Below, piece after piece: positions 6,631-14,478 of a stretch of DNA of 64,000 nt. Each line of letters opens with the position of its first letter. Position 1 is the first letter of the stretch. Below the pieces are notes generated by a model. It searched no databases, was not told the DNA's origin, and worked only from the letters and a program-made list of their open reading frames with translations. Source of the stretch: Escherichia coli (lineage in GTDB: Bacteria > Pseudomonadota > Gammaproteobacteria > Enterobacterales > Enterobacteriaceae). The DNA lies in the NCBI RefSeq assembly GCF_016026235.1, contig NZ_CP065613.1, one strand, 5' to 3'. A program made the translations under genes and the position numbers.

Positions 6631-9600
6631 TTGAGCCAGGAATACACTGAAGACAAAGAAGTCACATTGACAAAGTTAAGTAGCGGCCGTCGCCTTCTGG
6701 AAGCGTTGCTGATCCTTATTGTCCTGTTTGCCGTCTGGTTGATGGCTGCCTTACTAAGCTTTAACCCTTCGGACCCCAGCTGGTCGCAAACGGCCTGGCA
6801 TGAACCTATCCATAATTTAGGTGGGATGCCCGGTGCGTGGCTGGCAGATACGCTGTTCTTTATTTTTGGCGTGATGGCTTACACCATTCCCGTCATTATT
6901 GTCGGCGGTTGTTGGTTTGCCTGGCGTCATCAGTCCAGTGACGAATACATTGATTATTTTGCCGTTTCGCTACGCATCATTGGCGTTTTGGCGCTCATCC
7001 TTACCTCCTGTGGTCTGGCGGCAATCAACGCTGACGATATCTGGTATTTTGCCTCCGGTGGCGTCATTGGCAGCTTACTAAGCACTACGCTACAACCACT
7101 GCTACACAGTAGCGGGGGAACTATTGCGCTGCTCTGCGTTTGGGCTGCGGGCCTGACGCTGTTCACCGGTTGGTCATGGGTGACCATTGCTGAAAAACTC
7201 GGCGGCTGGATTTTAAACATTCTCACCTTCGCTAGTAATCGTACCCGTCGCGATGATACCTGGGTCGATGAAGATGAATATGAAGATGACGAAGAGTATG
7301 AAGATGAAAACCACGGCAAACAGCATGAATCACGCCGTGCCCGTATTCTTCGCGGCGCGCTAGCGCGTCGTAAACGGTTGGCGGAAAAATTCATTAATCC
7401 GATGGGGCGGCAAACAGACGCTGCGTTGTTCTCCGGTAAGCGGATGGATGATGACGAAGAGATTACCTACACTGCACGCGGTGTGGCTGCCGACCCGGAC
7501 GACGTCCTATTTTCGGGCAATCGTGCAACGCAGCCAGAATATGACGAATACGATCCATTATTAAACGGTGCGCCAATTACCGAACCTGTCGCTGTGGCAG
7601 CTGCTGCTACCACGGCGACACAAAGCTGGGCTGCGCCGGTTGAACCTGTGACTCAGACGCCGCCTGTTGCCTCTGTTGATGTTCCACCTTCGCAACCTAC
7701 AGTAGCCTGGCAGCCTGTACCGGGTCCACAAACGGGAGAGCCGGTTATTGCTCCTGCACCGGAAGGTTACCCACAGCAGTCACAATATGTGCAGCCTGCA
7801 GTGCAATATAATGAGCCGCTGCAACAACCAGTACAGCCGCAGCAGCCGTATTATGCACCTGCAGCTGAACAACCTGCGCAACAACCTTACTACGCTCCTG
7901 CGGCGGAACAACCTGTTCAGCAACCGTATTACGCCCCTGCGCCAGAACAACCGGTGGCAGGTAACGCCTGGCAAGCCGAAGAGCAGCAATCCACTTTTGC
8001 TCCACAGTCTACATACCAGACTGAGCAAACTTATCAGCAACCAGCCGCTCAGGAGCCGTTGTACCAACAGCCGCAATCCGTTGAACAGCAGCCTGTTGTG
8101 GAGCCTGAACCCGTTGTAGAAGAGACAAAACCCGCGCGTCCGCCGCTTTACTATTTTGAAGAAGTGGAAGAGAAGCGAGCCCGTGAACGTGAACAACTTG
8201 CGGCCTGGTATCAACCGATTCCAGAACCGGTTAAAGAACCAGAACCGATCAAATCTTCGTTGAAAGCGCCTTCTGTTGCAGCAGTACCTCCAGTAGAAGC
8301 CGCTGCCGCTGTTTCTCCGCTGGCATCTGGCGTGAAAAAAGCGACACTGGCGACGGGGGCTGCCGCAACCGTTGCCGCGCCAGTCTTCAGTCTGGCAAAT
8401 AGCGGTGGACCGCGTCCGCAAGTCAAAGAGGGGATTGGCCCGCAGTTGCCACGACCGAAACGTATCCGCGTGCCAACTCGTCGTGAACTGGCGTCTTACG
8501 GTATTAAGCTGCCCTCACAGCGTGCGGCGGAAGAGAAAGCCCGTGAAGCCCAGCGCAATCAGTATGATTCTGGCGATCAGTATAACGATGATGAAATCGA
8601 TGCGATGCAGCAGGATGAACTGGCACGTCAGTTCGCCCAGACACAGCAGCAACGCTATGGCGAACAGTATCAACATGATGTGCCCGTAAACGCAGAAGAT
8701 GCAGATGCTGCGGCAGAGGCTGAACTGGCTCGTCAGTTTGCGCAAACTCAACAACAACGTTATTCCGGCGAACAACCGGCTGGGGCGAATCCGTTCTCGC
8801 TGGATGATTTTGAATTTTCGCCAATGAAAGCGTTGCTGGATGATGGTCCACACGAACCGTTGTTTACGCCAATTGTTGAACCTGTACAGCAGCCGCAACA
8901 ACCGGTTGCACCGCAGCAGCAGTATCAGCAGCCACAACAGCCGGTTGCGCCACAGCAGCAATATCAGCAGCCGCAACAGCCGGTTGCGCCGCAGCCGCAG
9001 TATCAGCAGCCACAACAGCAGGTTGCGCCGCAGCCACAATATCAGCAGCCGCAACAACCGGTTGCGCCACAGCAGCAATATCAGCAGCCGCAACAACCGA
9101 TTGCGCCACAGCAGCAATATCAGCAGCCGCAACAACCAGTTGCGCCGCAGCCGCAGTATCAACAGCCGCAACAACCGGTTGCACCGCAGCAGCAGGATAC
9201 CCTGCTTCATCCGCTGTTGATGCGTAATGGCGACAGCCGTCCGTTGCATAAACCGACGACGCCGCTGCCTTCTCTGGATTTGCTGACACCGCCGCCGAGC
9301 GAAGTGGAGCCGGTAGATACCTTTGCGCTTGAACAAATGGCTCGCCTGGTGGAAGCGCGTCTGGCTGATTTCCGTATTAAAGCCGATGTCGTCAATTACT
9401 CTCCGGGGCCGGTTATCACTCGCTTTGAACTTAACCTGGCTCCTGGCGTAAAAGCGGCGCGCATTTCTAACTTGTCACGGGACCTTGCCCGTTCACTTTC
9501 GACGGTGGCGGTGCGTGTCGTTGAAGTTATTCCTGGCAAACCCTATGTAGGTCTGGAGTTACCAAATAAAAAACGACAAACCGTTTATCTGCGCGAAGTT

Positions 9601-10737
9601 TTGGATAACGCCAAATTCCGCGATAATCCGTCGCCATTAACCGTGGTGCTGGGTAAAGATATCGCCGGTGAGCCGGTGGTTGCCGATCTGGCGAAAATGC
9701 CGCACTTGTTGGTTGCGGGGACTACCGGTTCCGGTAAATCTGTCGGTGTGAACGCGATGATCCTGAGCATGCTTTATAAAGCACAGCCAGAAGATGTGCG
9801 TTTCATCATGATCGACCCGAAAATGCTGGAGCTTTCGGTTTATGAAGGCATTCCGCATCTGTTAACGGAAGTCGTTACTGATATGAAAGATGCCGCCAAC
9901 GCGCTGCGCTGGTGTGTTAACGAGATGGAGCGTCGTTATAAACTGATGTCTGCGCTGGGTGTGCGTAATCTGGCGGGTTATAACGAAAAAATTGCTGAAG
10001 CCGATCGCATGATGCGTCCGATTCCAGACCCGTACTGGAAGCCGGGTGACAGTATGGATGCCCAGCATCCGGTGCTGAAAAAAGAACCATACATTGTGGT
10101 GTTGGTTGACGAATTTGCCGACCTGATGATGACGGTAGGTAAAAAAGTGGAAGAGCTGATAGCACGTCTGGCGCAAAAAGCCCGTGCCGCGGGTATCCAC
10201 CTCGTACTGGCAACTCAGCGTCCATCGGTTGATGTTATTACTGGTCTGATTAAAGCGAATATTCCGACCCGTATCGCCTTTACCGTATCCAGCAAGATTG
10301 ACTCACGTACCATTCTTGATCAGGCTGGCGCGGAATCACTGCTGGGGATGGGGGATATGCTCTACTCTGGGCCGAACTCCACGTTGCCGGTACGTGTCCA
10401 TGGTGCTTTTGTTCGCGATCAGGAAGTTCATGCCGTGGTGCAGGACTGGAAAGCGCGTGGTCGCCCACAGTATGTTGATGGCATCACTTCCGACAGTGAA
10501 AGCGAAGGTGGCGCGGGCGGTTTCGATGGCGCTGAAGAACTGGATCCGTTGTTCGATCAGGCGGTGCAGTTTGTCACTGAAAAACGCAAAGCGTCAATTT
10601 CTGGCGTACAGCGTCAGTTCCGCATTGGTTATAACCGTGCAGCGCGTATTATCGAACAGATGGAAGCGCAGGGGATTGTCAGCGAACAGGGGCACAACGG
10701 TAATCGTGAAGTGCTGGCCCCACCGCCGTTTGACTAA
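6631..10737 (+). CDS. ftsK: DNA translocase FtsK (TTG start), long-linker variant
   Basis: 1368-aa ORF: N-terminal membrane domain, Pro/Gln-rich linker, C-terminal motor domain (Walker A GTTGSGKS) and gamma domain. Confidence 0.93.
8887..9195 (+). repeat. In-frame tandem array of about 8 copies of a 39-bp unit encoding [13 protein letters not shown] variants in the FtsK linker
   Basis: Directly visible periodic repeat in the DNA and translation; a second 3-copy array ([13 protein letters not shown]) lies near 7840-7960. Confidence 0.85.
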
Positions 10738-14240: not shown

Positions 14241-14258
14241 TACCCAATTTTTCTGAAT

Positions 14259-14288
14259 CTAAAAAGCGCCTGCGGGCGCTTTTTTTGT
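14259..14288 (+). terminator. Rho-independent terminator of serS
   Basis: aaaaaGCGCCtgcgGGCGCttttttt hairpin plus T-run. Confidence 0.8.
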
Positions 14289-14478
14289 CTCCCTTTGATA
14301 CCGAACAATAATTACTCCTCACTTACACGTAATACTACTTTCGAGTGAAAATCTACCTATCTCTTTGATTTTCAAATTATTCGATGTATACAAGCCTATA
14401 TAGCGAGCTGCTATAGAAATAATTACACAATACGGTTTGTTACTGGAATCAATCGTGAGCAAGCTTGAGTGAGCCATT

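Follow-up and report, generated by a model that had tools for sequence, protein, structure and literature searches.

Polymorphism of ftsK has been used to type strains of E. coli, Shigella, and Salmonella since about 2003-2008. Closest to the locus described here are ms06 and ms07 of the E. coli/Shigella MLVA panel, which is credited to French work on Shigella and E. coli: for ms06, alleles 2, 3, and 4 with amplicons of 301-379 bp were published from Tehran isolates, and for ms07, the published range is 392-821 bp, with alleles 1-12 (PMC8215070). The generic E. coli MLVA, which follows the scheme of Lindstedt et al. 2007 as used in PMC8143711 and PMC5217547, includes CVN001, a locus with a 39-bp unit at which the allele is computed as (product - 250)/39 (PMC8143711). 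Among Swedish ESBL-producing isolates, CVN001 alleles 4, 5, 6, 7, and 8 occur at 1, 40, 40, 13, and 5%, respectively. In a different genus, the STTR7/SENTR2 locus of Salmonella enterica is likewise a 39-bp repeat in the PQ region of ftsK that varies among serovars and is used for MLVA; the likeness to the E. coli arrays is drawn purely by gene and unit length, from the literature. Salmonella Enteritidis is listed with 9.3 copies at this locus, the literature explicitly speaks of a “variable PQ repeat region” in ftsK, and two strains of this serovar are known to differ by an in-frame deletion of ftsK repeats.

These repeats fall within a segment of FtsK whose general properties are well described. 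Reviews portray the ~650-aa linker of E. coli FtsK as unstructured and rich in proline and glutamine. They describe it as necessary for FtsK to act normally and as contacting FtsQ, FtsL, FtsI, and FtsZ. Its length varies greatly between species, to ~125 aa in Pseudomonas and ~200 aa in vibrios, with function retained.

The DNA considered here (the window, meaning the whole 64-kb stretch that was analyzed) is a segment of the E. coli chromosome in which the list of open reading frames gives the order trxB - lrp - ftsK - lolA - rarA - serS. This order is common to the window, annotated K-12, and other genomes. The ftsK gene and its conserved domains are laid out as follows:

6631..10737, + strand: ftsK coding sequence, with a TTG start and 1368 aa plus stop (from the list of open reading frames); lrp lies upstream, lolA and rarA downstream
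6688..7203, + strand: N-terminal four-helix (4-TM) membrane domain, residues 20-191 (Pfam PF13491 FtsK_4TM, E = 5.4e-42)
9265..10719, + strand: C-terminal DNA-translocase motor, made up of the alpha, FtsK_SpoIIIE, and gamma domains (Pfam; alignment with K-12)

The product is an FtsK/SpoIIIE DNA translocase, the orthologue of E. coli FtsK, as is evident from its membrane domain, its motor domain, and its gene context. Within the motor, FtsK_alpha covers residues 879-979 (Pfam PF17854), the P-loop FtsK_SpoIIIE domain covers residues 987-1200 (Pfam PF01580, E = 8.9e-88), and the KOPS/XerD-interacting FtsK_gamma domain covers residues 1303-1363 (Pfam PF09397). The Walker A motif GTTGSGKS is present in the translation, and the amino acid sequence of the motor region as a whole is identical to that of K-12 in the alignment. 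The closest public record, NZ_LT883142.1 from an E. coli isolate from France, carries the same coding sequence of 4107 nt in its RefSeq annotation, from which the window gene departs at three single bases: 7790 (T/C), 10293 (C/T), and 10602 (T/A); the window therefore derives from a very close relative of that genome, or from a different version of it. By the Pfam bounds, the linker extends from residue 192 to about residue 878, and it is this segment that holds two tandem arrays:

7840..7953, + strand: array A, MLVA locus ms06 allele 3; 3 units (39 bp each, except a final one of 36 bp) (Tandem Repeats Finder, unit typing)
8887..9195, + strand: array B, allele 8 of MLVA locus ms07 and allele 7 of CVN001; 8 units (39 bp each, except a final one of 36 bp) (Tandem Repeats Finder, unit table, unit typing)
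9043..9120, + strand: units 5 and 6 of array B (9043..9081 and 9082..9120), which differ by one nucleotide, G to A, changing V to I

In Tandem Repeats Finder, both arrays have a period of 39: array A, at 7838..7952, scores 125 with 2.9 copies and 78% matches, and array B, at 8887..9194, scores 469 with 7.9 copies and 89% matches. When read in the register of the reading frame, the units of array A encode 13, 13, and 12 residues, and the 309 bp of array B encode eight variants of a single 13-residue unit. The initial annotation had already recognized about eight 39-bp units at 8887..9195 and a separate three-copy array around 7840..7960, and both are borne out by the repeat search and the unit tables. 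Across the full 64-kb window, the only tandem repeats with a score of at least 60 are these two arrays and one small acidic repeat, all of them in ftsK; hence, the two arrays are real and far beyond what chance would produce. The acidic repeat, (GATGAA)n with a period of 6/18 at 7267..7308, encodes 14 residues just past the membrane domain and is the same in K-12. The linker also contains a dispersed direct repeat just upstream of array B, at about 8617..8658 and 8722..8763, in which 14 residues are encoded twice at a distance of about 20 residues; its first copy contains the site of the ms07 forward primer.

All units of array B are distinct, with 1 to 8 nucleotide differences between pairs; among adjacent units, 5 and 6 are the most alike. 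The unit table has 11 variable nucleotide positions, 8 of which are synonymous, and therefore the units are old and their peptide motif is conserved. Array B is not a fresh expansion.

The published primers identify both arrays directly. We took the ms06 and ms07 primers from PMC8215070 and matched them in silico to the window and to the sampled loci described below, and applied the CVN001 primers in the same manner:

7730..8069, + strand: ms06 amplicon, 340 bp; exact primer matches at 7730..7749 and 8050..8069
8627..9291, + strand: ms07 amplicon, 665 bp; exact primer matches; 587 bp in K-12
8774..9296, + strand: CVN001 amplicon, 523 bp; exact primer matches at 8774..8792 and 9277..9296; (523-250)/39 = 7.00

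For ms06, the exact primers, the 39-bp unit, and the series of in-silico amplicons in the sample (301, 340, and 379 bp) are the same as published, with the window corresponding to allele 3. The ms07 primers bracket array B, and the sampled amplicons lie between 548 and 704 bp at 39-bp intervals, except for one variant of 602 bp; the window is simply allele 8, a number derived from the 39-bp step and the published range, and differs in nothing substantive from the described locus. In-silico PCR for CVN001 on the sampled loci returns alleles 4 to 8, the same as the published range, and the count of this scheme for array B is one unit below that of Tandem Repeats Finder (7 versus 7.9). Arrays A and B are accordingly the long-established VNTR typing loci ms06 and ms07/CVN001, and their polymorphism is already known. 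The initial annotation had suggested linker length as a plausible strain marker; this is right, but the marker has been in routine use under these names for well over a decade. As a practical outcome, the window can be assigned in silico to ms06 = 3, ms07 = 8, and CVN001 = 7. The discovery value of the observation is small, since variability of the linker is standard knowledge. With high confidence, we read the locus as two in-frame 39-bp minisatellites (VNTRs) in the PQ-rich linker, represented in the window by allele 3 of ms06 and allele 8 of ms07 as ordinary polymorphism.

This reading is supported by the comparison with K-12, which the initial annotation had named beforehand as the test of its proposal that the window FtsK exceeds the K-12 protein by exactly three 13-residue units. 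The K-12 length of 1329 aa that it gave is correct, as the ftsK gene of strain W3110 comprises 3990 nt. Alignment of the two proteins shows three 13-aa gaps, all within the arrays, and only seven substitutions elsewhere; the whole excess of 39 residues is thereby accounted for, and no length difference lies outside the repeats. The number of extra units stands as proposed, and their location can be refined: one is in array A (3 units in the window versus 2 in K-12) and two are in array B (8 versus 6). The accompanying suggestion that the array had expanded, by slippage or recombination, fares unevenly. Gain and loss of whole units are supported by the unit maps discussed below, but the linker is “expanded” only relative to K-12, whose own FtsK is among the shortest in E. 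coli. Because of this position of K-12, and because alleles longer than that of the window exist (1381 aa, in NZ_CM125680.1), the direction of change is not established.

To place the window within the species, we searched 5,426 complete E. coli genomes with megablast and took evenly spaced rows of the results as population samples; these samples are small and systematic, and the genome collection is clinically biased. The ftsK linker queries matched 5,425 of the 5,426 genomes, leaving one without a match. Counts for array B combine the match spans of 40 sampled records with units counted in the translations of 18 fetched loci, as megablast spans are not directly usable for this array where at least two units differ: overlapping pieces are not joined, and K-12 itself appears as partial matches.

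Array A is present with 2 units in 18, 3 units in 20, and 4 units in 21 of 60 records, with one record other or unresolved. Its three alleles thus occur in roughly equal thirds, with the 3 units of the window as the middle allele. In NZ_OZ547043.1, the megablast record span across array A exceeds the matched part of the query by about 64 bp, and this record may hold a longer or irregular ms06 allele. Array B spans 5 to 9 units: among 40 records, 6 units (14 records) and 7 units (19 records) are common, 5 units and 9 units are seen once each, and a variant of 6.4 units with a 5-residue partial unit is seen twice. The 8 units of the window, found in 3 of the 40 records (~7%), constitute a minority allele. 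The array B frequencies agree with those of CVN001 in the Swedish isolates, and the array A alleles agree with those of ms06 in Tehran. The partial unit, QQPQY, belongs to the 1347-aa allele WP_000077107.1 of L009 and L018 (NZ_CP069996.1 and NZ_OZ546967.1), in which array B encodes 83 residues; its in-silico CVN001 value is a noninteger, 5.38, which could give rise to rounding ambiguity in MLVA.

The lengths of FtsK found were 1329, 1342, 1347, 1355, 1368, and 1381 aa, and all 19 alleles examined (19/19) encode a full-length, in-frame protein of 1329-1381 aa. The 3 + 8 combination of the window is therefore an ordinary, moderately uncommon one inside the normal range. The exact allele of the window is rare, with 99.9% identity over 1701 bp (7700..9400) reached only in two records, NZ_LT883142.1 and the canine isolate NZ_CM176494.1; the same 3 + 8 architecture is present in at least five further genomes at 98.2-98.6% identity. 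The 1329-aa FtsK of K-12 should not count as the species norm, and annotation pipelines should expect E. coli FtsK lengths of at least 1329-1381 aa.

Evidence on how the copy number changes comes from unit maps, in which each 39-bp unit of array B was typed by its exact DNA sequence. The nine-unit map of the sampled locus L010 (0 16 0 16 2 3 17 6 7) is the seven-unit map of the related allele L004 (0 16 2 3 17 6 7) with the block 0 16 duplicated in tandem. In the window map (0 1 2 3 4 5 6 7), two neighboring, nearly identical units take the place of a single unit of L004, and this pair, units 5 and 6, appears to be the likeliest candidate for the most recent single-unit duplication. The map of L017 (NZ_CP115984.1; 8 9 10 4 6 7) has K-12-type units at the 5' side and window-type units at the 3' side, which suggests a mosaic that arose by recombination within the array. 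Block duplications and mosaics of this kind are typical of replication slippage or unequal homologous recombination, and from the comparison of alleles we infer one or the other as the probable mechanism. This fits with established knowledge of minisatellites. Identical unit maps, in turn, recur in isolates that differ in country and source (L001 and L013 to L016), from which it follows that the arrays are slow-changing relative to clonal spread and, therefore, work as typing markers.

Taken as a mechanism, copy number may shift by replication slippage or by unequal homologous recombination between units, with point mutation and conversion-like exchange yielding mosaic arrays. As the unit is 13 codons long, gain or loss of whole units preserves the frame and only lengthens or shortens the linker, the tether between the N-terminal domain anchored at the septum and the DNA pump at the C terminus. 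Phase-variable contingency loci likewise vary by gain and loss of repeat copies; unlike these, the ftsK arrays remain in frame in every allele examined. We accordingly rejected a phase-variable contingency locus, given the 39-bp unit and the 19/19 in-frame, full-length alleles, which leave no on/off switching.

The alternative that survives best, though we consider it improbable, is that the number of units in the PQ arrays tunes the reach of the tether or its divisome contacts, and that lineages have been selected for different lengths. Several observations are compatible with such tuning: the peptide motif is conserved while the synonymous sites vary, unrelated isolates of different countries (L013 to L016) have identical, fixed unit maps, and the linker is reported to be necessary for normal FtsK activity and to contact FtsQ, FtsL, FtsI, and FtsZ. 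Were it true, tether length could affect when or how efficiently chromosome dimers are resolved and how stable the divisome is, and the MLVA markers would be functional alleles as well. Yet the population counts argue otherwise, as the near-equal proportions of the three array A alleles and the broad distribution of array B counts give no sign of one favored length. On a larger scale, function is retained over interspecific linker lengths of ~125 to ~650 aa. The one direct swap that we found, an exchange of ftsK repeat alleles in Salmonella Enteritidis, left survival in egg white, the phenotype assayed, unaltered; as this was a single phenotype, the experiment is weak evidence for neutrality. 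Most simply, a tether of ~650 residues that becomes 13-39 residues longer or shorter would do so neutrally or nearly so.

Still less probable, to the point of being very unlikely, is that the copy number reflects expansion or collapse by the assembler and that the true allele is different. Repeat arrays can indeed be misassembled from short-read data, but the two records that match the window allele at 99.9% identity are separate RefSeq complete genomes, and the additional genomes with the 3 + 8 architecture provide further occurrences of the same counts. Moreover, array B is resolvable, with all its units distinct and a total length of only 309 bp, and 8-unit alleles (CVN001 = 7) were recovered by PCR sizing in 13% of the Swedish isolates. 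We rejected this reading too.

The long stop-free antisense frames over the repeats, which the initial annotation had pointed out, are present in the six-frame analysis and in the list of open reading frames:

8518..9474, - strand: antisense stop-free stretch of 319 codons
8867..9376, - strand: antisense stop-free stretch of 170 codons

Despite the existence of these stretches, that they encode a protein has a negligible likelihood, and we rejected an antisense gene: array B is stop-free in 5 of the 6 frames for no other reason than that stop triplets are absent from the CAG/CCG/CAA-rich unit and from its complement, the translations are of low complexity (L/R-rich and A-rich), the length of the frame would shift with every copy-number allele, and RefSeq has no annotation there, so that the open frames are a by-product of repeat composition. 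As for RNA genes, no tRNA genes were found in the 64-kb window, and its sole Rfam match at the gathering threshold is a full-length copy of the enterobacterial sRNA STnc130 at 14254..14388 on the - strand (140 bits).
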